Source: a virus | Virus record (IMG/VR): IMGVR_UViG_3300045988_132224 | Location: 1 to 45,180 of that record | Length of the DNA stretch: 45,180 nucleotides | Strand: one strand, 5' to 3' | Shown here: positions 6,166 to 34,956 of the stretch, piece after piece | Position numbering within the stretch: the stretch's first letter is position 1 | Layout: every line of letters starts with the position of its first letter | Notes under the pieces: generated by a model | Databases searched by the model: none | What the model was told of the DNA's origin: nothing | The model's input: only the letters and a program-made list of their open reading frames with translations | Translations under genes and position numbers: made by a program

Positions 6166-6218
6166 CTCAATGCAAAACGAACGAATTTCTCAAATTTTAA
6201 CCTGATTCTGCAAGAAGT

Positions 6219-6294
6219 CTCCCGCCTCTATAGGTGGGAGTACGTTCACTTGTTTCAGAAATAAAAAAAGATCCTGAACATATTATTCAGGATC
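6219..6294. terminator. Two hairpins ending the repressor-cargo operon
   Basis: ctcccgcc/ggtgggag stem at 6219-6240. Perfect 9-bp stem gatcctgaa/ttcaggatc at 6270-6294, flanked by an A-run upstream. Confidence 0.45.
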
Positions 6295-6508
6295 TCAAAA
6301 ATAATATTGCAAAAAAATAAGCCACCCCCAGGGGCAAAGGAATTCTAAGCGTAATCGCCTACTCCCATTCGGGAACCCAGCCTTATCCTTCACAAGTTGA
6401 CTTTATAGTCATTATATCAAAAAAACGGGAAAATGCAACTATTTATTTTATGACACCTGTTCTTGACCAAACAAGATAAAAATAGAAAAAGTACCGGCAC
6501 CGTGCTGC

Positions 6509-6739
6509 GACGTCGTCATCGTCAAAAAGCAGCCAACCGTAGACTCTGGTGACATTGCCATCGTCCTCGTCAACGGCAACGACGCCACGGTCAAAGAGAT
6601 AAAAGAAAGCCCGGCCGGCATCACTCTCATCGGCCATAACGTCGCCGTATATACGCCCCACTTCTACTCCAACCATGACATAGAGTCTCTTCCCATCCAG
6701 ATAATCGGCAAAGTGGTGGAGATGCGGCGGAAGTTTTAG
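6509..6739 (+). pseudogene. 5'-truncated remnant of a second S24-type repressor (C-terminal 76 codons only, no start codon)
   Basis: It translates to DVVIVKKQPTVDSGDIAIVLVNGNDATVKEIKESPAGITLIGHNVAVYTPHFYSNHDIESLPIQIIGKVVEMRRKF*. This is collinear with the CI C-terminus DVVIVRRQDDVESGDIAIVLVNGNEATVKRV...VVELRGKM*. An in-frame TGA lies at 6464, and there is no ATG/GTG/TTG after it. Confidence 0.8.
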
Positions 6740-6749
6740 AAAGGAAGTA

Positions 6750-7520
6750 ATGAAAGATATGAGCCATCCTTTACCTAAATCCCATATACTTGTAAAACGC
6801 TATAGAAAATTTGCAAATTTTCTCAAAATGACGAGTAACAAAAATTTCCAGCGATTTATGTTGTGGATTCAACACTATATACAGCTGAAGTTTAATGAAA
6901 AAGAATTCAAATCAACCTTTTTACCAAAATATGAAGAAGGACAAATTATTTTTGTTGATTTCGGCTGCGGTATATCTCATGAATTTAGCTATCCTCATTA
7001 TGCAGTTGTTTTAAACTTGCATGATCGCAAGAAAAGCAACTTGCTTACTGTAGTACCTATGACATCAAAAAAGCCCAAACACAAAATATTAAAGCCATGG
7101 GAACATGAATTACAGTGTACAGTTCCTGATTTATTAGCTATGAAAGCCATGTCTGAATTTGACTTACAAAAACCTGAGTACAAGGATTTGCGAAATGATG
7201 TTATCCAGTTATTTTTACAAAATACCACTAAAGAGGAATTTGACAAAAGGCATCATGAGCTTATCGAAAGAGGCGTACAGGCTATATACAATAACAACTA
7301 TGACATTATGAGTTTTAGAGAAAAAATGAAGCAAGGGAGTATCGTTGAAACAAATCAAATCCGCACAATCAGTAAGTCCAGGATAATATTCCCAACGAAA
7401 AAATTACATCCACTTTATGATATTAAAGTTGATAAGCAAGACTTGTCTATCATTAAGTGGAAAATAATGAAAAATATTGTCATAGATATTATTGACAAAC
7501 CTGATGAAGAGCGTATATAA
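6750..7520 (+). CDS. Oversized MazF/PemK-fold toxin-like protein (N-terminal extension and ~95-aa insertion)
   Basis: GQIIFVDFGCGISHEFSYPHYAVVLN...LLTVVPMTSKK and GSIVETNQIRTISKSRI match the two conserved MazF/PemK/EndoA blocks (compare [25 protein letters not shown] and DSVILLEQIRTIDKQRL). Confidence 0.65.
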   Translation: MKDMSHPLPKSHILVKRYRKFANFLKMTSNKNFQRFMLWIQHYIQLKFNEKEFKSTFLPKYEEGQIIFVDFGCGISHEFSYPHYAVVLNLHDRKKSNLLTVVPMTSKKPKHKILKPWEHELQCTVPDLLAMKAMSEFDLQKPEYKDLRNDVIQLFLQNTTKEEFDKRHHELIERGVQAIYNNNYDIMSFREKMKQGSIVETNQIRTISKSRIIFPTKKLHPLYDIKVDKQDLSIIKWKIMKNIVIDIIDKPDEERI

Positions 7521-7590
7521 TGGAACTACAAATTGGGCTGTGAATCCCAAAAAATATTTTCCATTATTGTCTCCATTCGGAGGCAAAAAG

Positions 7591-7619
7591 AAAGGCGCTC
7601 TATGCAGAGCGCCTTTTTT
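7591..7619 (+). terminator. Rho-independent terminator after the MazF-like gene
   Basis: aaaggcgctc-tatgca-gagcgccttt stem-loop followed by a T-run. Confidence 0.8.
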
Positions 7620-7644
7620 GATTGCGTATTTGTCTATAAAAAAA

Positions 7645-7706
7645 TCCCGGTACCGTGCTGGAACACGATACCGGGATATGCCGCAGGTGCTGGAACACCT
7701 ACGGCG
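7645..7706. other. Two tandem hairpins with identical CTGGAA loops
   Basis: tcccggtaccgtg-CTGGAA-cacgataccggga at 7645-7676 (13-bp stem, 1 mismatch). ccgcaggtg-CTGGAA-cacctacgg at 7681-7704. The first is followed by a T-run on the minus strand, so it can act as a minus-strand terminator. Confidence 0.55.
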
Positions 7707-7794
7707 CTGTAAATCTACACACACGACTACGGGGGCTGATTTACGCTATCAGTATATCACATCAGCCTCCCTTTACGCAAAGGAGGTTATTTTT

Positions 7795-8874
7795 ATGACC
7801 GATTTAACCTATCACTTCTCTTTCAGAGAAAAGGATCGCGGCTGGCAGGTCATCTTATCGTACAAAGACCAGGCGGGACGCTGGAAGCAGAAGTCACGCC
7901 AGGGTCTGGCCACCAAAAAGGCTGCCAAAGCCGCCGGCGAAAAGCTCCTGGTCGACGTACTCGATGCAATGAAGAGCCAGCCAATTGCGCCGGAGCTCGT
8001 CGACATCTCCCTGGCAGAATTTGCAGAATACGTTTTCCGCAGCCGCAACCTGACGTATAACTCCGTCCTGGCCTATCGCTACGCGCTGAAGAATTACGGC
8101 CCGAAGCTTCTGGCCATGCCGGTCCGTAAAATCACCTATCTAGACATCCAGCAGGCGATGAGCGCCTGGCAATGTGCTGATGCCAGCTACCAGCTCTATG
8201 TAACCTGCCTCAAGATGGTCCTGTCCTACGCTGTCGAGCCCTACCATCTCCGGCAGGATAACCCAGCCATCCACTTGAAGCCCAGGAAGCTGAACCGCCG
8301 GCACAAGATCCGGGCGCTGACGCAGACCGAATTTGACCAGCTTATGGGAAGCATGGAGACCCGTCCGATGAAATACTATGCCATGTGTGCCATTGCTGGA
8401 TATACCGGAATGCGAGTAGGCGAAATTATGGCCCTCACTTGGGATGACGTAGATCTAAAAGAGCGACAGATTAGTGTTACCAAGCAATACGGCCGTATTG
8501 CCCATAAGAAGCGCGGGATCATGAACATCAAAAACAAGGCCGCCGGGCATCGTGTCATCCCCATTCCCGTCAAACTGCAGCAAATCCTATTGGCCTATCG
8601 CCGTTCCGAGCCGCGGCAAATAAATGGGCAGCTATTCCCGCATAGCCAGTTCTATAAATCACTAGATGGATACATAAAGAAGATTGTCCCTGATGCATCT
8701 ATCCATAGTTTACGTCACACCTATGCAACGATGCTGCTGGCCAATGGCACCGACATCAAGACCGTGGCAGCGCTCCTCGGCGACACGGTTACCACGGTTT
8801 TAAATGTCTACGTGGATTATACAGACGACATGAGACGGAAAGCCGCGCAGTCAATTGAAAAAATTTTTGCGTAG
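7795..8874 (+). CDS. int: Tyrosine integrase (lysogeny integrase)
   Basis: SD AAAGGAGG precedes the ATG at 7795, and the upstream part of ORF 7492 is discounted. Motifs AGYTGMRVGEI, HSLRHTYATML and LNVYVDY match the R...HxxR...Y pattern. It sits next to the repressor module and putative attP. Confidence 0.9.
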   Translation: MTDLTYHFSFREKDRGWQVILSYKDQAGRWKQKSRQGLATKKAAKAAGEKLLVDVLDAMKSQPIAPELVDISLAEFAEYVFRSRNLTYNSVLAYRYALKNYGPKLLAMPVRKITYLDIQQAMSAWQCADASYQLYVTCLKMVLSYAVEPYHLRQDNPAIHLKPRKLNRRHKIRALTQTEFDQLMGSMETRPMKYYAMCAIAGYTGMRVGEIMALTWDDVDLKERQISVTKQYGRIAHKKRGIMNIKNKAAGHRVIPIPVKLQQILLAYRRSEPRQINGQLFPHSQFYKSLDGYIKKIVPDASIHSLRHTYATMLLANGTDIKTVAALLGDTVTTVLNVYVDYTDDMRRKAAQSIEKIFA

Positions 8875-28158: not shown

Positions 28159-29400
28159 TTAGTTACCTCCTTTGTAGTGCGGGTTACGTTTGCGGCAGTT
28201 TTCGCCAAAATCCCGCGGGTCGCCCTGTTTATTAAGGGCCGAATCGTTTACTTTGCGGCGGCGGTTCAACGCGCCATAGCCACCCGTGAGGGGCTGTGTA
28301 CCGCCTCTGCGCAGTGCTTTACGGACAGCCCTGCTCATGGCGTCAGATACGCGGCGGCGCTGCGGGTTCGGCATCGTCGCCACAATCGGTTTGATGGACC
28401 GAATAATGCTCAAAGCAATCGCTCTGTCCTGGGCCTCACGGTTCTGTGGCGTGTCCTTCCCTTCCTCTTCTGCCGGCGTATCTTCGTCGGTTTCGATGTC
28501 TTCCGGCGGAACCGTAACGGATTCTTCGCCGTCGTCTTCGGTCGCATCGTTTTTCTGCTCCGGATCTAATTCCTCTTCCAGGGAATCCATAGCTTCAGTA
28601 CCCTTATCATCTTTGTCTTCCAGGTCGTCTTCATCGTCCGTTGGCTGCTCGCCTTGCTGGGAAGCCAATGCGGCAACGCGTTCATTTAACGCGTCAATGG
28701 CATCCTTGAGGTTATTGTCCCCTTTCTCATCTTTTTCATCATCGCCGCAGTTTTCGACGTCATTTACGACCTGGGCCGCTTCGCGGACTTCATCCGGATC
28801 GGCATCTTTTACGAAGGCCGCAAACATACGATGCAATACACTTTTCTTTCTGCTCATTGATTTTCCTCCTTTAGGTTTTGAGTCTTTAATGGACACATCG
28901 TGCCCTGCGCGGCCATTGGTTACGATGGCCACGTGATTGCCAATGATGTCGGCCTGATGATATGTACCGTCGTCGTTGGCGATATATTTGCAATCATAGC
29001 CACATGATATTTCGCGCTTCCCGGCCTCGACCTTAGCCGCCAGCGCTGCATCATAAATGACTATATCGCAAACCAGTTTGTCATTGTCCTCTCCGTTGCC
29101 GCGGCGGACATTCTGCACCACGCCTTTCACATAGGTGCTGTAGTTCGACGAATCAATCCCGACAGGTGGATGGTCGTCGGTCAGTGGCTTACCTTCAAAT
29201 GAGGCAATAGCCGAAGGCTTGAATACTTCCTCCGGGGTTCGGAACACCGTGACAATCGGCAAATCCGAATCAATCCCCAGCTCTTTCGGCAAATATTCCT
29301 GTGCTCCCGTCCGACAGATAGGTACCGTGTGGCATACCAGATACCCCTCCGGCGTCTTTGTCATATGCGGTGAAAACCGGGAACCATAAAATGCTTTCAA
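28159..29400 (-). CDS. Prohead protease/scaffolding protein (DUF2213-like) with acidic C-terminal region
   Basis: TTG start after AGGAG. The N-terminal domain ...GKPLTDDHP...ISCGYDC...GNHVAIV is followed by a Asp/Glu-rich linker. Confidence 0.6.
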   Translation of the reverse strand: MKAFYGSRFSPHMTKTPEGYLVCHTVPICRTGAQEYLPKELGIDSDLPIVTVFRTPEEVFKPSAIASFEGKPLTDDHPPVGIDSSNYSTYVKGVVQNVRRGNGEDNDKLVCDIVIYDAALAAKVEAGKREISCGYDCKYIANDDGTYHQADIIGNHVAIVTNGRAGHDVSIKDSKPKGGKSMSRKKSVLHRMFAAFVKDADPDEVREAAQVVNDVENCGDDEKDEKGDNNLKDAIDALNERVAALASQQGEQPTDDEDDLEDKDDKGTEAMDSLEEELDPEQKNDATEDDGEESVTVPPEDIETDEDTPAEEEGKDTPQNREAQDRAIALSIIRSIKPIVATMPNPQRRRVSDAMSRAVRKALRRGGTQPLTGGYGALNRRRKVNDSALNKQGDPRDFGENCRKRNPHYKGGN

Positions 29401-29426
29401 ATGGCACCATCTCCTGAAAATGGGTA

Positions 29427-29454
29427 TAAAAAAACCACCTCATAATGAGATGGT
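29427..29454 (-). terminator. Strong rho-independent terminator inside the head operon
   Basis: The minus-strand RNA folds as ACCAUCUC-AUUAU-GAGGUGGU followed by U7. Confidence 0.7.
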
Positions 29455-29467
29455 AAAAAATATCAAA

Positions 29468-29788
29468 TTATAATCCTGGAACACTATCTTCGATTCCTTT
29501 AGCCATTCTCATGGCCCGTTGCATCAAGCTGTTTTCGTTTAAATACTCCAATCCTCGTAGTGTCAATCGCGGACGTCCCTTGCTGACCATGAAGTGGCCT
29601 GCGCTGTCAACATCTATGGCAATCCCTTCAATTAATCCAGCCATTAACAACATGCGTAAAATAGATAACAGCCGTTGCTCCGTAATATGCAAGGTTGTCG
29701 GCGAAAGGTAACGCTCATCAAACTCTTCACTATCCATGCTGGTTTCCAGTATTTTCAAAATACGATAAATAATGCGGATGTTGTCCAT
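29468..29788 (-). CDS. YjcQ-like winged-helix protein (by memory)
   Basis: 106 aa with IIYRILKILE...GLIEGI...LTLRGLEYL. AT-rich island. Confidence 0.5.
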   Translation of the reverse strand: MDNIRIIYRILKILETSMDSEEFDERYLSPTTLHITEQRLLSILRMLLMAGLIEGIAIDVDSAGHFMVSKGRPRLTLRGLEYLNENSLMQRAMRMAKGIEDSVPGL

Positions 29789-29814
29789 GATAGTACTTCT
29801 CCCTTATTACATGG

Positions 29815-30009
29815 TCAGTAAATAGGCTTGCCTTCTTTATATGCCTCACGGGCTTCGTTTAGTGACATCGAATTGGCTCCGCCGCGATAATCTGGGTTCT
29901 CACTTTGGATGGCGTCATTGCACCATCCGCATAAGTCGCAAAAATCCATATCATTCCAGTGTTCAAATGCATATTTGCCACACACAGGGCATTTAACCGG
30001 TTCCTCCAT
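29815..30009 (-). CDS. Cysteine-rich CPCC-type small protein
   Basis: CPVCGKYAFEHWNDMDFCDLCGWC motif. Confidence 0.6.
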   Translation of the reverse strand: MEEPVKCPVCGKYAFEHWNDMDFCDLCGWCNDAIQSENPDYRGGANSMSLNEAREAYKEGKPIY

Positions 30010-30514
30010 GATGAATATCTGCCTTTCTTTGCTTTATGTAGTATTTAATGCCTTCCATCGGTTTAAAAAGAGTGCGGATGCCTTTATTTAAGTCCGCTTT
30101 TACAAAATCATTCTCTTTGCAGTCATATCGGATAATCTGATTATTTTTGTCAATATGGCCAAGAATATCACCACCAACAGGCATTTCAGCTAGTTTCACA
30201 GCTCTTTCAACGTATTGTTCCATTGTTAAACCCGGATATTCTTCTTGGTGTGTCCGGCCGTTTTTCCAATGATTCATGAGTTTTTGTTTATTTATAAAAC
30301 CACAGATTTTTAACTTATTAGCTCCTGTTGGGCTCGCCCTTACATTACCATTCTTTTTCGTATTTGTCGAGGGCGGTCCGCTGCCTTTGCCAAATTTCCC
30401 GTCTGGCCCTCTGGGATGCTTAGATTCATCCCACTCTTTATCTAAGGTCAGCCGGGCAAGGTGCAGCTTCGTGGCCATCAGTTTCAGGAGTAGCCTATTC
30501 TGTATACTTTTCAT
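29993..30514 (-). CDS. MuF-associated effector-like protein (putative BECR/RelE-fold RNase toxin domain)
   Basis: Starts 2 nt after the MuF stop. Has the linker motif ESKHPRGPDGKFG, then HWKNGRTHQEEYPGLTMEQYVERA...IIRYDCKENDFVKADLNKGIRTLFKP. Confidence 0.5.
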   Translation of the reverse strand: MKSIQNRLLLKLMATKLHLARLTLDKEWDESKHPRGPDGKFGKGSGPPSTNTKKNGNVRASPTGANKLKICGFINKQKLMNHWKNGRTHQEEYPGLTMEQYVERAVKLAEMPVGGDILGHIDKNNQIIRYDCKENDFVKADLNKGIRTLFKPMEGIKYYIKQRKADIHHGGTG

Positions 30515-30516
30515 AA

Positions 30517-31380
30517 CTACTGAATCCTTTCAAAATTGCGGCGGCTGATAGTCCGGATAGATCCATGACGGTAAATGCGTGCTGGCCAATTCACTAAATC
30601 CAGGTCAATGATTGGTTCTGGGTAACACCTGCAGTTCGGGCAGCACCCAGCATGGTAATACCCGAGTGAGTTGCGATAGGGTTTGCCGTTTTTCCCGATA
30701 GTCGGGAACAAGTCTTCTGGCGCCGGCGGGTCATCCCAGTTTACGATGACGCCGCTCATCATGCGGTGGCTGGTGCGCGTGCGCCCATCACCACCCATAC
30801 CACCTACAGGCCGCCAAATATACCAATGTATGCCAAAGTTCTGACAGCGGGCCTGGGTCAACTCTGTCTGGGTCATGGACGTCTGCGTCCTGGCGATGAG
30901 CTCAGCCCTGGCTCTGGTATGGGAAGGGAACATTGTCCGGATTTCCTCCGCAATATCCGAAGCCCTGCGCCCCTTCATCGCTTCGCATGAAGTATAAGCG
31001 GCCACATCGCTGGCAATATCAGTGGGAAGTGTCCGGATGAGAGCCGCATTTTCTGCCACTAAATCGCGCAATTTGCGCCCTGTCGGTCCTTGTAGCTCTT
31101 TCCGTAACAAATTATATAGCTCGCGACTTCGGCCGTTTCTGGCGGCCGCCTGGCGCCATGTGCGCCCCTGATCATCAAATAGGCCCGTGACCATTTTTAG
31201 GGCTGCTGCTTGGCAGACGCGCTGGAAGGTCTTAGTTTCAGCGATTTGTAGGAGCGTATTGCTTATCGCATTTGGGTCTGATGTGCGCCCGACGCGTCGG
31301 ATCATTTGCCTGGCCAATTCCATCAAGCTACGGCGGAAGGCCAGTTCAATTCTGCGTTTCGGTTCCCACAGGTGCTGCAT
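30517..31380 (-). CDS. Head morphogenesis protein (SPP1 gp7 / Mu F family)
   Basis: DGRTRTSHRMMSGVIVNWDDPP and YHAGCCPNCRC motifs. Lies after the portal gene. Confidence 0.8.
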   Translation of the reverse strand: MQHLWEPKRRIELAFRRSLMELARQMIRRVGRTSDPNAISNTLLQIAETKTFQRVCQAAALKMVTGLFDDQGRTWRQAAARNGRSRELYNLLRKELQGPTGRKLRDLVAENAALIRTLPTDIASDVAAYTSCEAMKGRRASDIAEEIRTMFPSHTRARAELIARTQTSMTQTELTQARCQNFGIHWYIWRPVGGMGGDGRTRTSHRMMSGVIVNWDDPPAPEDLFPTIGKNGKPYRNSLGYYHAGCCPNCRCYPEPIIDLDLVNWPARIYRHGSIRTISRRNFERIQ

Positions 31381-31398: not shown

Positions 31399-32877
31399 TC
31401 ATTTATCCGAAGGGGATACGTTGGGAGCATCATATTCAGATTCGCTGTTTTTCGGCTCGCTTTGCCCTTCTGCGCCGCCAAATAGTCCAGCCATACCATC
31501 CATGCCTTCGTTCGGGTTTTGAATCGTATCGTCGGCATTTTCGATATCTTCATCGGTGATGTTCGACCACATGCCTGTAATCTCGCTCTGTTGGCGTAAC
31601 TCTTTCAGCGCCGTGCGCTGGGATATCATGCCAGCCTGGAATGCTTTCGTTACAGAGTCGGTGTTCTTGCTGGCCAGGTCAGACATCTCATTTTCGTCCG
31701 GGCGGCGTACAGCGTTGAAGTCGTAATCGAAGTCGTCGGGAACGGCGCCAAGTGTCGATGTCATGATGATAGGCAACAGCTTATCTAAAACCGGACGAAG
31801 TTCGGATTCCTGCTTTTCTTCGATAGTATCGTAGTAGTTCTGCATGTCCGACTCGCCCGTGGCATTCATGCCACTCGGCGACCGCCCAAAAAGTTTTGTC
31901 ACCGGTGTTTCTGCGGCACCAGCCACGTCCATCATAAACCGGTCGTAGGCATCCGCGATGCCCCCGAAGGTGTACTGGTGCGTTTCATAGCTGTCATTTT
32001 CGCCGAGCACCTGAATGCTGTTATTATTCATCATGGCATTCATGCCCTGAATCGTGTTGTACAAGTCCTGCTGGGCTTTCTGGCTGCCTGTGGCCAGCAC
32101 CTGGCTCAGTCCTTCCACCTTCATGACGCGTAAGTTGGCCATGAAGGTTAGCATAGCGATATTCCATGATACATTGTCGCGTTTCTTGAGTTCGTCGAAA
32201 ATGTGCTCGATTTCTGACGCGCCCCAGTAGTTTTCGGCCAGCTGCTCGATGTAAGGGAGCGGCCGTCCGATGAACCGTAATATTCGGCTGTGATGGACGC
32301 GCACGCCCCGCTCAATGCTATCGCTGGTCAGGGTATAGGTGTCGGGAAGGCCGAACTCCGGGTCGTCGATGTCGTCCACTAGCTTATCGTCTGGGGATAT
32401 ACCACTCCACCGGTCCAGCACGAGCAGCCCTTTATAATCGCCCGGCATGATTTCGTCCAGGTTCAGCGGCTGGTCCAGCTCATTTTCCTGCCCTTTGAGC
32501 ATGATGAGCGCCCCGGCCCCACCATAGAGACGGCCGAGTTTCAACCCGTCTAGGATACGTGCCGTCGTCCGTGTCTTGCGGTCGGTCTGCATGACCTTCC
32601 GTATGGCGTCAGGAGCTAACTGTGACAGGATTTTATAGCCGTTCTTGCACATGTCTTCCGGAATCGTGTCGATGATGCGCCGCACAATCCAGTGGGACCG
32701 ATACAGGCTGTTTATGGTCTGCCAGTCCCAGGTGAACCGCGTCAACGGATATTGCGTGGATTCCAGCACATTGGGCATGAATACCCCACTCCGCGTCAGC
32801 GGATTCTGGAATGCATCATTTGTCTGCCGCCGTATGGGTTTCTTTCGTCTTTTCCTTGTCATTCTCTCAGCCTCCAT
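31399..32877 (-). CDS. Portal protein
   Basis: 492 aa, between the large terminase and MuF genes. DUF1073-type by memory. Confidence 0.8.
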   Translation of the reverse strand: MEAERMTRKRRKKPIRRQTNDAFQNPLTRSGVFMPNVLESTQYPLTRFTWDWQTINSLYRSHWIVRRIIDTIPEDMCKNGYKILSQLAPDAIRKVMQTDRKTRTTARILDGLKLGRLYGGAGALIMLKGQENELDQPLNLDEIMPGDYKGLLVLDRWSGISPDDKLVDDIDDPEFGLPDTYTLTSDSIERGVRVHHSRILRFIGRPLPYIEQLAENYWGASEIEHIFDELKKRDNVSWNIAMLTFMANLRVMKVEGLSQVLATGSQKAQQDLYNTIQGMNAMMNNNSIQVLGENDSYETHQYTFGGIADAYDRFMMDVAGAAETPVTKLFGRSPSGMNATGESDMQNYYDTIEEKQESELRPVLDKLLPIIMTSTLGAVPDDFDYDFNAVRRPDENEMSDLASKNTDSVTKAFQAGMISQRTALKELRQQSEITGMWSNITDEDIENADDTIQNPNEGMDGMAGLFGGAEGQSEPKNSESEYDAPNVSPSDK

Positions 32878-34106
32878 TTGGCCACCATCGTCTTGCAGTA
32901 GTACCGAAGAGCATCCATGCTATGGTCACTCACCTTCAGCGGTTGCTCTTTCCCATTGGCCGCTGCTTTTTCATCCCATACATAGGTCTGGAACTCGGCC
33001 CATGTGTTAGTGCACTTACGGTTCAGCCTCAGCCGCCCCCGGCTAATCAACATGGCGGTTACTCGGATTCCATCGTTGACGCTGTTGTCCGCATCTTTTA
33101 CACGGAACCCCTTGCCCTGGCACACCAGCTTGAACGAAGCCGCTGACGGGTCGATGATGATAAAGTCAGGGTATTCGTCCCCAATGAAATTGACCAGGTC
33201 GTCGGCATACTGGGCATCCGTCTTCTGGCGCTGCATCGCCCGGCTGTCCCAGTAATACTCCCCATCTACCCAGATGGTTTCGCCATCGTCCAGGATGTCC
33301 AGGAACACCATAGGGTTCTTCGTCCCGTAGTCCACGGCGATGTATCGGCGGCAGCGGGACCGCATGGTCTTATTCAAATCGTCGTCGTTGTAAAGCATCG
33401 CATCGGACACCATATCGTAAATCAGCCCTTCGGCCAGAACCCACATGCCAAGGATCATGCGCTTATACCACATACCGGAGTAGGACCTTCTGATATTGGC
33501 CTTATACTCTGCCGGCAGGTTCGGGTTGTCGTCCAGCATGAAATGAATGTCTTTGACAACCCCATCTTGCAGCATCGATTCATTGGTGATGTATTCCTTG
33601 TACAGGTAATGCATTGGCGAGTCGGGGTTCGTTGTCCCATACAGCTTGGCACCTTTTACGCTCAGGCGGTTCAACAACTGCTTGAAGAAATGTTCCGGCA
33701 TTAGCGTCAGCTCGTCGCAATAGGCTCCGGCCAGCGTCTTGCCACGAATGAACTTTTCTGACCCCTCATCCTTCGCGCCGACTATTTTGATGCGCCGCGA
33801 GCGAGTGTCTCCTTTGGATTCCCAGAAGACGTCCAGCTCTCCGGACTGGCGATTGTATTTGTAGTGGTTGTCCCCCAGGGTATCGAATAGATCATTCAAG
33901 ACGTTGTCATATACAGTATCTTTGGACACGCCAGTCATCAGCAACAGTCCCGGTGGCCCAGTCATGATGTAGTTGATCCACTTCGGTATCATGCTAACGG
34001 TTTTCCCCGACCGGACGGAGCCTTCAAGAATAGTGATGAATGCATCGTCTGAAGGTGGCGTGCAGATGAACTCCAGGGCTTTACGTCCCCACTTTTGAAA
34101 TTCCAT
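32859..34106 (-). CDS. terL: Terminase large subunit (PBSX/XtmB-like)
   Basis: Walker A ILEGSVRSGKT, plus acidic nuclease-domain motifs near the C-terminus (IIIDPSA, VSDHSMDALRY). Confidence 0.9.
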   Translation of the reverse strand: MEFQKWGRKALEFICTPPSDDAFITILEGSVRSGKTVSMIPKWINYIMTGPPGLLLMTGVSKDTVYDNVLNDLFDTLGDNHYKYNRQSGELDVFWESKGDTRSRRIKIVGAKDEGSEKFIRGKTLAGAYCDELTLMPEHFFKQLLNRLSVKGAKLYGTTNPDSPMHYLYKEYITNESMLQDGVVKDIHFMLDDNPNLPAEYKANIRRSYSGMWYKRMILGMWVLAEGLIYDMVSDAMLYNDDDLNKTMRSRCRRYIAVDYGTKNPMVFLDILDDGETIWVDGEYYWDSRAMQRQKTDAQYADDLVNFIGDEYPDFIIIDPSAASFKLVCQGKGFRVKDADNSVNDGIRVTAMLISRGRLRLNRKCTNTWAEFQTYVWDEKAAANGKEQPLKVSDHSMDALRYYCKTMVAKWRLRE

Positions 34107-34691: not shown

Positions 34692-34780
34692 TGGCGGAAA
34701 GTGTGGGATTCGAACCCACGGTGCGTTGCCGCATCACTAGTTTTCAAGACTAGCTCCTTAAACCACTCGGACACCTTTCC
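34692..34780 (-). tRNA. tRNA-Ser (anticodon UGA), CCA encoded
   Basis: Hand-folded: acceptor GGAAAGG/ACTTTCC, anticodon arm CTAGT-CTTGAAA-ACTAG, long variable arm, T-arm GTGGG-TTCGAAT-CCCAC. Confidence 0.85.
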
Positions 34781-34785
34781 ATGGC

Positions 34786-34861
34786 TGGCAGGAACGGAAG
34801 GACTCGAACCTTCAACAAATGGTTTTGGAGACCACTACTCTACCAGTTGAGCTACGTCCCT
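34786..34861 (-). tRNA. tRNA-Trp (anticodon CCA), CCA encoded
   Basis: Hand-folded: anticodon arm GTGGT-CTCCAAA-ACCAT, T-arm GAAGG-TTCGAGT-CCTTC. Confidence 0.85.
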
Positions 34862-34882
34862 ATGATATGCCCCAAAAGGGGA

Positions 34883-34956
34883 GGGCGGAGGCTGGACTCG
34901 AACCAGCGACAATGGGGCTTGCAAACCCTTGGCTCTACCAACTGAGCTACTCCGCC
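34883..34956 (-). tRNA. tRNA-like gene with irregular anticodon arm (UGC or GCA anticodon possible), no encoded CCA
   Basis: The acceptor (GGCGGAG/CTCCGCC), D-arm and T-arm (GCTGG-TTCGAGT-CCAGC) are perfect. The segment CAAGGGTTTGCAAGCCCCATTGTC is 1 nt too long and does not form a 5-bp stem with a 7-nt loop. Confidence 0.6.

Follow-up and report, generated by a model that had tools for sequence, protein, structure and literature searches.

A probable polymorphic-type toxin-immunity pair with a colicin-D-like toxin domain in the head operon of a Negativicutes phage

Results

Organization of the head module

The stretch of DNA analysed here (the window) is the IMG/VR virus record IMGVR_UViG_3300045988_132224 in its full length of 45,180 base pairs (bp), a complete virus genome with terminal repeats. 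The phage encodes genes of a temperate lifestyle (an integrase at 7492-8874, and antirepressors) as well as an amidase, and its nearest protein relatives are from the Selenomonadaceae (Mitsuokella, Selenomonas, Schwartzia). The probable host is a gut bacterium of this family, for example Mitsuokella or Selenomonas. Its head module lies on the minus strand in the order TerL, portal, MuF, an open reading frame (ORF) of 173 amino acids (aa), CPCC, YjcQ, a hairpin followed by seven T residues (T7), DUF2213 and the capsid genes. The 173-aa ORF and the overlapping CPCC gene, which are the subject of this study, are probably a toxin-immunity pair of the polymorphic type known from phages, where such toxins are joined to internal head proteins. 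The annotated features, with distances in nucleotides (nt), are:

32859-34106, minus strand: TerL
31399-32877, minus strand: portal protein, 492 aa, without a cargo extension (PF06381, 3.6e-126)
30517-31380, minus strand: short MuF head-morphogenesis protein, 287 aa (PF04233, 2.6e-12; phrog_324, 3e-52)
29993-30514, minus strand: 173-aa ORF (leader and toxin domain), with its ATG 2 nt past the MuF TAG
30341-30514, minus strand: leader of the 173-aa protein, residues 1-58 (helix, linker motif and low-complexity spacer)
29996-30340, minus strand: toxin domain, residues 59-173, predicted colicin-D-like alpha+beta fold (phmmer, AF2, Foldseek)
29815-30009, minus strand: CPCC zinc-ribbon protein, 64 aa (PF14206, Cys_rich_CPCC, 3.2e-16)
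29468-29788, minus strand: YjcQ-family winged-helix protein, 106 aa (PF09639, 2.2e-24)
29427-29454, minus strand: intrinsic-terminator-like hairpin and T7 (9-bp stem, 3-nt loop)
29401-29431, minus strand: conserved junction TTTTATACCCATTTTCAGGAG, containing the DUF2213 ribosome-binding site
28159-29400, minus strand: DUF2213 scaffold/prohead-protease-like protein, the first gene past the terminator (PF09979, 1.4e-51; labelled 'head maturation protease' in PHROGs)

An initial annotation of this DNA had pointed out an AT-rich island inside the head operon, and the computed guanine plus cytosine (GC) content bears this out, with values of 0.38-0.45 across 29450-30350 versus 0.52-0.58 on either side. 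The cassette has a GC content of 0.40 and its flanks 0.54, and in 35 of 37 related loci the cassette is likewise poorer in GC than its flanks. The gene layout in that annotation also holds: the 173-aa ORF starts 2 nt after the MuF stop codon, both its linker motif ESKHPRGPDGKFG (residues 30-42) and its C-terminal block HWKNGRTHQEE...GIRTLFKP are present, the CPCC gene overlaps it by 17 nt, and a YjcQ-like gene follows. A search of the phage genome for extra copies found one toxin gene and one CPCC gene only.

The toxin domain and its solved homologue

Residues 81-162 of the 173-aa protein match PDB chain 8ey4_A in a single-sequence phmmer search (expectation value (E) 1.1e-5, 31% identity). 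The record describes a 'contact-dependent growth inhibition toxin-immunity protein complex from E. coli O32:H37', with 8ey4_A as the toxin chain. A profile of the toxin family finds the same chain in the PDB (4.1e-6), as its sole sequence match. Structure comparison leads to the same protein. The AlphaFold (AF2) model of residues 59-173 has a predicted local distance difference test score (pLDDT) of 93.6, and Foldseek places 8ey4_A at the top of its PDB matches, with a template modelling (TM) score of 0.83-0.84 and a root mean square deviation of 1.7-1.8. Ranks 2-6 are all entries of the colicin D transfer RNA (tRNA)-cleaving ribonuclease (tRNase) domain (1V74, 1TFO, 5ZNM, 1TFK), at TM 0.46-0.52, Foldseek E 0.04-0.3 and probability 0.5-0.9 (0.5-0.84 for the domain model), and no further structural neighbour rises above noise. 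The model of the full-length protein and that of the domain give the same ranking, and among the viral models of BFVD an entry named 'Colicin D' is matched with probability 0.98 and TMt 0.64.

In the AF2 model, the toxin domain consists of a short helix, a loop, a helix, four strands and a final helix. In 35 diverse sequences, N81-H82-W83, H89, Y101, R129-Y130, N135 and K151-P152 are invariant, and T148 is conserved in at least 90%; E92 completes an H89(xxE92) motif. The same conserved residues are kept in 8ey4_A and in gp35 of phage SM1. In ribonucleases (RNases) of the Barnase-EndoU-ColicinE5/D-RelE (BECR) type that resemble colicins, the active site is made up of a histidine in the N-terminal or pre-helix element and of residues on the last strand (PMC5512222; bioRxiv 10.64898/2026.08.28.747851), and 'Hxx[ED]' and '[TS]xxK' have been described as BECR/colicin-D signatures (PMC3482391). 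The conserved histidines of the toxin domain are located in the pre-helix element, and T148, K151 and P152 at the end of strand 4. With the modest scores of the colicin D matches in mind, it is reasonable to regard the domain as having a colicin-D-like BECR-type fold and as a putative RNase. Among the profile collections searched, phrog_15528, a 'portal' profile that has this domain at its C-terminal end, is the sole one to match.

The CPCC protein as immunity partner

The CPCC protein matches the second chain of the same crystal, 8ey4_I, at E 1.9e-13, and the immunity protein alone, 8ey3_A, at 2.3e-13. The depositors call this chain the immunity protein, and its sequence record bears the name 'Cys_rich_CPCC domain-containing protein'. 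Both products of the phage genes thus have their homologues in one solved complex, and the genes are adjacent. The ATG of the CPCC gene sits within the His-Gly-Gly codons of the toxin gene, which gives the 17-nt overlap.

We compared 52 related toxin loci from genomes and viral contigs. Of these, 49 have DNA 3' of the toxin domain, and in every one a CPCC gene comes directly after it; the remaining 3 stop at the edge of their contig. Twenty-five toxin-CPCC pairs overlap by exactly 17 nt. Pairwise identities of toxins correlate with those of the CPCC proteins (Mantel r 0.61, reached in 0/2000 permutations), which fits co-inheritance, with a contribution from shared ancestry. Because it matches 8ey4_I and follows the toxin in all 49 of these loci, the CPCC protein is the predicted cognate immunity protein. 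The literature searched contained no paper linking CPCC to immunity and nothing relevant on PF14206 or 8EY4.

According to the initial annotation, either of the two small genes could have encoded the immunity protein. This proposal survives for CPCC and not for YjcQ, which is rejected as the immunity protein: its gene is present in 5/52 toxin loci and follows many different small ORFs, including those of unrelated pairs.

Some loci depart from the usual arrangement. One viral contig has two pairs of toxin domain and CPCC, about 1 kb from each other (L050:4550-5111 and 6181-6741), with short stand-alone toxin ORFs, and resembles the orphan toxin-immunity arrays of contact-dependent growth inhibition (CDI) loci and Rhs loci. 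In two others (L002:6079-6537; L043:1138-1596, P0043), toxin domain and CPCC read as a single fused ORF of 152 aa.

Carriers of the toxin domain and exchange of the cassette

A search of 1.84 billion representative proteins with the toxin domain returned 1175 matching clusters, 347 of them at E up to 1e-10, and in the best 150 of the 1175 the domain is C-terminal. The long carriers are portals of PF06381 and PF04860, portal-NUDIX proteins, MuF proteins and, in one locus (L023), DUF2213. True MuF fusions of the domain occur elsewhere (P0087, P0091). In the closest relatives (L031-L042), which share the TerL, portal, MuF, DUF2213 and capsid genes with this phage, the portal reads on, after about residue 478, through the KHPR linker to the toxin domain, and CPCC and MuF are the next two genes in this order. 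Portals of 787-1162 aa with a NUDIX domain between portal and toxin domains were noted for the Faecalibacterium loci L014, L021 and L022 and for proteins P0063, P0082 and P0177; these are polyvalent head cargo proteins.

We aligned the window with the related locus L030 at the DNA level. MuF and the leader are 90-98% identical (93-98% in the leader segment), after which identity falls abruptly to 50-62% at about 30318-29895, that is, in the toxin domain and most of CPCC. It recovers to 77-82% in yjcQ, to about 90% at the hairpin and, in DUF2213, to 77-100%. The nearest relatives shift as well. The toxin domain shares 72-74% identity with the portal-fused versions of L031 and L034 and only 54% with those of the same-backbone loci L029, L030 and L033, while the CPCC protein is closest to those of L034 and L035 (73-75%) and 61% identical to those of L031 and of L029, L030 and L033. 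Since identities drop and nearest relatives change for both genes, toxin domain and CPCC were replaced as one unit, toxin with antidote, between leader and YjcQ in a backbone that is otherwise about 90% identical.

The free-standing form and its leader

A free-standing toxin ORF after MuF is found in this phage and in loci L030 and L033. MuF and the toxin ORF are in different frames, and a stop codon closes the toxin frame 5 codons upstream. A MuF-toxin fusion through a -1 frameshift was considered and rejected on account of this stop and since no slippery site was seen in the last MuF codons.

The leader begins with a predicted amphipathic helix (residues 2-22; 2-23 in the AF2 model), followed by the linker motif T23-L-D-x2-W-x-E-x-K-H-P-R-x3-G-K-F41 at 30392-30448 and by a spacer, where the pLDDT of the full-length model is low (residues 43-56). 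The KHPR motif is the linker between portal and toxin domain in the portal fusions L031-L042. Helix and motif also head other small post-MuF ORFs with unrelated C-terminal domains (L034, L035, L060), and the portal of L055 has the KHPR linker and then a different domain of 70 aa, followed by an acidic ORF of 73 aa and YjcQ. A search with the leader alone (word-filtered) returned close relatives only. The leader may be a docking or tethering module for head cargo.

Cargo ORFs of the post-MuF slot and one of the toxin carriers (P0054) contain a second conserved linker motif, NW[RV]T[IM]NG..V.L..G.... It occurs at L034:7545-7742, L039:7630-8140 and L060:5264-5821, beside KHPR...G.F or replacing it.

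YjcQ and the hairpin

The YjcQ profile match covers positions 1-94 of the 95 of PF09639, and there is a weak match to PDB 2hgc. As the gene is present in only 5/52 toxin loci, YjcQ is not the specific partner of this toxin. Its relatives are encoded in more than 460 viral loci of IMG/VR. In 59 of the 65 loci with enough upstream DNA, an ORF of at least 250 aa lies within two ORFs upstream of YjcQ, and all 30 distinct long upstream ORFs are portal (13), MuF (11) or MuF2 (6). Most of these 30 proteins far exceed the plain forms in length, and seven carry a NUDIX domain. The small ORF between carrier and YjcQ varies by phage (acidic, zinc-ribbon-like, in one case HD-hydrolase-like). Judged by gene order, the pairs of portal/MuF cargo and immunity gene are many and different, and YjcQ is the constant third gene that follows them. 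The literature search yielded nothing relevant on YjcQ of this family or on DUF2213. The HD-like case is an ORF of 142 aa just upstream of YjcQ (L078:4562-4990), which by eye resembles HD-domain hydrolases (..HPIRVA..LLHDTVED..); such a protein would suit immunity against a nucleotide-synthesising toxin.

The hairpin ACCATCTCA-TTA-TGAGGTGGT at 29454-29434 forms 9 pairs (-10.7 kcal/mol) and is followed by T7. With a GC-containing stem directly before the U-run, it has the sequence hallmarks of a Rho-independent terminator, and no second strong terminator-like site is present on the minus strand over the 45 kb of the phage. Its conservation extends to L029, L030 and L033. The initial annotation had taken it as the terminator of the island; the hairpin with T7 is indeed present and strong, but it is not peculiar to the island, since such sites recur both at the 3' ends of YjcQ genes and at junctions between head genes in related phages. 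A hairpin with a T-run is found 3' of the YjcQ stop codon in 38 of 59 distinct loci, compared with 0/21, 0/37, 1/27 and 2/30 (0-7%) after neighbouring genes. On the loci compared, the predicted terminator belongs to a general architecture of the form 'cargo - immunity - YjcQ - hairpin - scaffold'.

The DUF2213 gene starts 33 nt past the T-run. A sigma-70 scan, which has other promoter types outside its scope, found no promoter-like site in the 33 nt before this start; on the coding strand it found no island promoter, upstream or inside, except a 9/12 match inside yjcQ. Because the hairpin precedes DUF2213 without a promoter-like site, the capsid genes would have to depend on read-through, or on a promoter type that the scan does not see.

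Within the window, the junction TTTTATACCCATTTTCAGGAG occurs once, with 0 occurrences expected by chance, and L029, L030 and L033 also have it. Stems differ between loci, yet in many cases TTTT[GAT]ATACC(C)ATTTT.AGGAGG comes next, before the start codon of the following gene. Past the YjcQ stops of L071-L149, a similar junction of T-run and [GAT]ATACC(C)ATTTT.AGGAGG recurs across different portal/MuF types; it could be a regulatory sequence or a recombination boundary. Within 29401-29454, the 5' arm ACCATCTC of the hairpin is also complementary to the DUF2213 ribosome-binding region GAGATGGT, and it is these two that pair in the minimum-energy fold of the junction, in place of the terminator hairpin. 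The same is true of L029. In L030 and L033, the 5' arm likewise has a downstream complement, GAGGTGGT, but the terminator hairpin is kept in their minimum-energy folds. The alternative pairing may be due to chance or may act as a translational switch.

Discussion

The module shares several features with the MuF polymorphic toxins. In temperate phages, these lie in the head/packaging module adjoining the portal gene, and the order TerL-portal-MuF-toxin is found here. A domain shared with other toxins and a downstream immunity ORF are also present, with CdiA (8EY4), SM1 gp35 and MafB (PMC5576092) as the other carriers. The domain is thus found in CDI, Maf and MuF systems and therefore shows the hallmark of a polymorphic toxin domain. 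MuF polymorphic toxins are further defined by MuF and toxin in one polypeptide (Jamet et al. 2017), and here the two are separate.

One of the closest known counterparts is SM1, a phage of Streptococcus mitis, whose gp35 is the seed of the MuF3 toxins (Jamet et al. 2017, PMC5576092). The C-terminus of gp35 is homologous to the toxin domain (36% identity, 3e-13) and gp36 to the CPCC protein (42% identity, 3e-14), and the two pairs occupy the same place, following the portal/MuF genes directly within a temperate phage's head module. Homology of the gp35 C-terminus and the downstream ORF to a MafB/MafI module of Neisseria meningitidis NM3001 has in turn been described (PMC5576092). In contrast to the phage studied here, the domain is the C-terminus of MuF itself in SM1, instead of a separate 173-aa protein with a helix and KHPR leader, and the annotated SM1 stretch has no YjcQ gene. 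In phage phiSS12, a MuF-toxin gene is likewise followed by an annotated CPCC gene.

In the CdiA-CT/CdiI pair of E. coli O32:H37 (8EY4; 8EY3), both partners are homologous to those of the phage, and their complex has been solved. That toxin is delivered between Gram-negative cells by the type V CdiA filament (with a PT-VENN pre-toxin region), whereas the module described here resides in the head operon of a Negativicutes phage. The likeness to the colicin D tRNase domain and its immunity protein ImmD is one of predicted architecture (alpha plus a four-stranded sheet) and of signature residues (HxxE in the N-terminal element and [TS]xxK on the last strand; PMC3482391). No sequence similarity can be detected, the TM score is only about 0.5, and ImmD is unrelated to the CPCC zinc ribbon. 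For PBECR domains, which are predicted BECR RNases on portal/MuF carriers, packaging and injection have been predicted (Iyer et al. 2017, PMC5512222). They represent the same architecture class, but the Pfam PBECR models have no match here, and PMC5512222 mentions no CPCC or YjcQ partner.

Free-standing head cargo has precedents of another kind. The internal proteins (IPs) and Alt of phage T4 and the Dar proteins of P1 are separate polypeptides that are loaded into heads and ejected with the DNA, and capsid targeting in T4 uses a short N-terminal targeting peptide. The 173-aa protein would be free-standing head cargo like these, but its leader is unrelated to theirs in sequence, and the function ascribed to it is a conjecture.

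Taken together, we consider it likely, with a probability of roughly 0.7, that the 173-aa gene and the overlapping CPCC gene form a polymorphic-type toxin-immunity pair of the kind that phages attach to internal head proteins. The toxin domain would be a metal-independent RNase of colicin-D-like BECR fold, with H82 and H89 in the pre-helix element and T148 and K151 on the last strand as the putative active site, and the target would probably be a tRNA. In the late phase, translational coupling (the MuF stop, 2 nt and ATG, then the 17-nt overlap) would lead to joint synthesis of toxin and CPCC, so that CPCC could silence the RNase while virions are built. The leader would dock the free-standing protein inside the procapsid; in sister phages, the same linker tethers the domain covalently to the portal. 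The protein would be ejected with the DNA, unfolded and hence stripped of CPCC, and would act in the newly infected cell; cells making a matching CPCC would be protected. YjcQ and the hairpin would close the module, as components that cargo modules of this sort have in common and that are not tied to this toxin; they may serve in regulation or as a transcript boundary. Under this interpretation, the pair belongs to an established kind of toxin, and what is new is the free-standing, leader-bearing form and the YjcQ-terminator ending.

Several observations weigh against this interpretation. Pfam searches at E up to 1 with the 173-aa protein, five homologues and the 8ey4_A segment gave 0 families for the toxin domain, so that no PBECR, Ntox or Colicin_D profile matches the domain; NCBIfam likewise gave 0 families, and PADLOC gave none for the domain. 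Because no curated profile matches, the domain is not assigned to a named BECR family. The toxin family profile does not reach colicin D in the PDB sequence search, where it finds only 8ey4_A; a sequence link to colicin D was dropped on this ground, and the link is one of fold. No enzymatic activity of the toxin family was found in the papers searched. Since the toxin is not fused to MuF, its packaging is argued by analogy, from the fused relatives and from an uncharacterised leader. The sigma-70 scan found no promoter for CPCC expression in a lysogen, which leaves protection of the lysogen unsupported. Finally, the toxin genes of several close relatives are frameshifted and truncated (P0040, P0044, P0052), so the cargo is dispensable and can evidently decay while the phage persists. 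As regards the BECR-type RNase proposed in the initial annotation, homology and fold (8ey4_A at 1.1e-5, TM 0.83; colicin D among the structural neighbours) speak for it, and the profile searches do not. The sharper version of that proposal, a colicin-D-like domain with a solved homologue, is supported.

The RNase might not be packaged at all. It could act late in the producing cell and process host or phage RNAs like RegB of T4, with CPCC as a timing inhibitor and the slot after MuF as a merely convenient site. The separate ORF with its own start codon would suit such a role, as would the stop that closes the route to a MuF fusion, and messenger RNA (mRNA)-processing roles for phage BECR domains have been raised (PMC5512222). 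However, the domain is covalently fused to portal, MuF or DUF2213 in many phages, and the free-standing form keeps the exact portal-domain linker of its sister phages. A strictly coupled stoichiometric inhibitor also seems ill-suited to an enzyme that acts in the producer cell, and we regard this explanation as rather unlikely.

The island might instead be a moron, that is, a cassette for toxin-antitoxin function or exclusion which the prophage expresses for addiction or anti-phage defence, with the hairpin as its own terminator. In favour of this, the island is AT-rich, has a terminator at its boundary and lies in a temperate phage, and the GC contrast with the flanks across the related loci marks a horizontally mobile unit. 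This is at odds with the lack of a promoter-like site for it on the coding strand in the sigma-70 scan (bar the match inside yjcQ), with a start codon that is coupled to the late gene MuF, with the absence of PADLOC hits, and with the relatives that carry the domain as part of structural proteins. We therefore consider it improbable. It is more improbable still that the domain is catalytically dead and serves as an RNA- or DNA-binding head accessory, as has been proposed for MuF-C of phage Mu. An inactive BECR domain has been described in Mu gp30 (PMC5512222), and the papers searched report no enzymatic activity for the toxin family. Yet His82, His89, Arg129 and Lys151 are invariant, Thr148 is nearly so, and the domain has an obligatory immunity partner in every locus that extends far enough, whose homologue the depositors describe as an immunity protein.

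A broader idea can be put forward tentatively, although we think it less likely than not. Gut Bacillota phages could load free-standing head cargo in a modular way, by means of a portable leader, a swappable toxin-immunity pair and a constant ending of YjcQ and terminator. In such a scheme, the leader would substitute for covalent fusion to portal or MuF. YjcQ and the terminator might regulate or delimit the module, for example by controlling read-through into the scaffold/capsid genes or expression of the immunity protein. Neither the leader nor the link with YjcQ is described in the papers searched.

The phage also has three tRNA genes, for Ser(tga), Trp(cca) and Cys(gca), at 34692-34956 on the minus strand, a short way upstream of the terminase genes. 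Should the cargo be a tRNase, these tRNAs might replace cleaved host tRNAs or escape cleavage, which is pure speculation.

Both partners of the pair have solved homologues, which makes toxicity, neutralisation and target directly testable. The 'Cys_rich_CPCC' family is widespread and of unknown function, and the present assignment would give it a role, in immunity against a colicin-D-like toxin. The conserved leader of the free-standing form is a candidate head-targeting signal. Finally, the recurrent ending of YjcQ plus terminator is a third component that has gone unnoticed, and it may set the transcription of the head genes.

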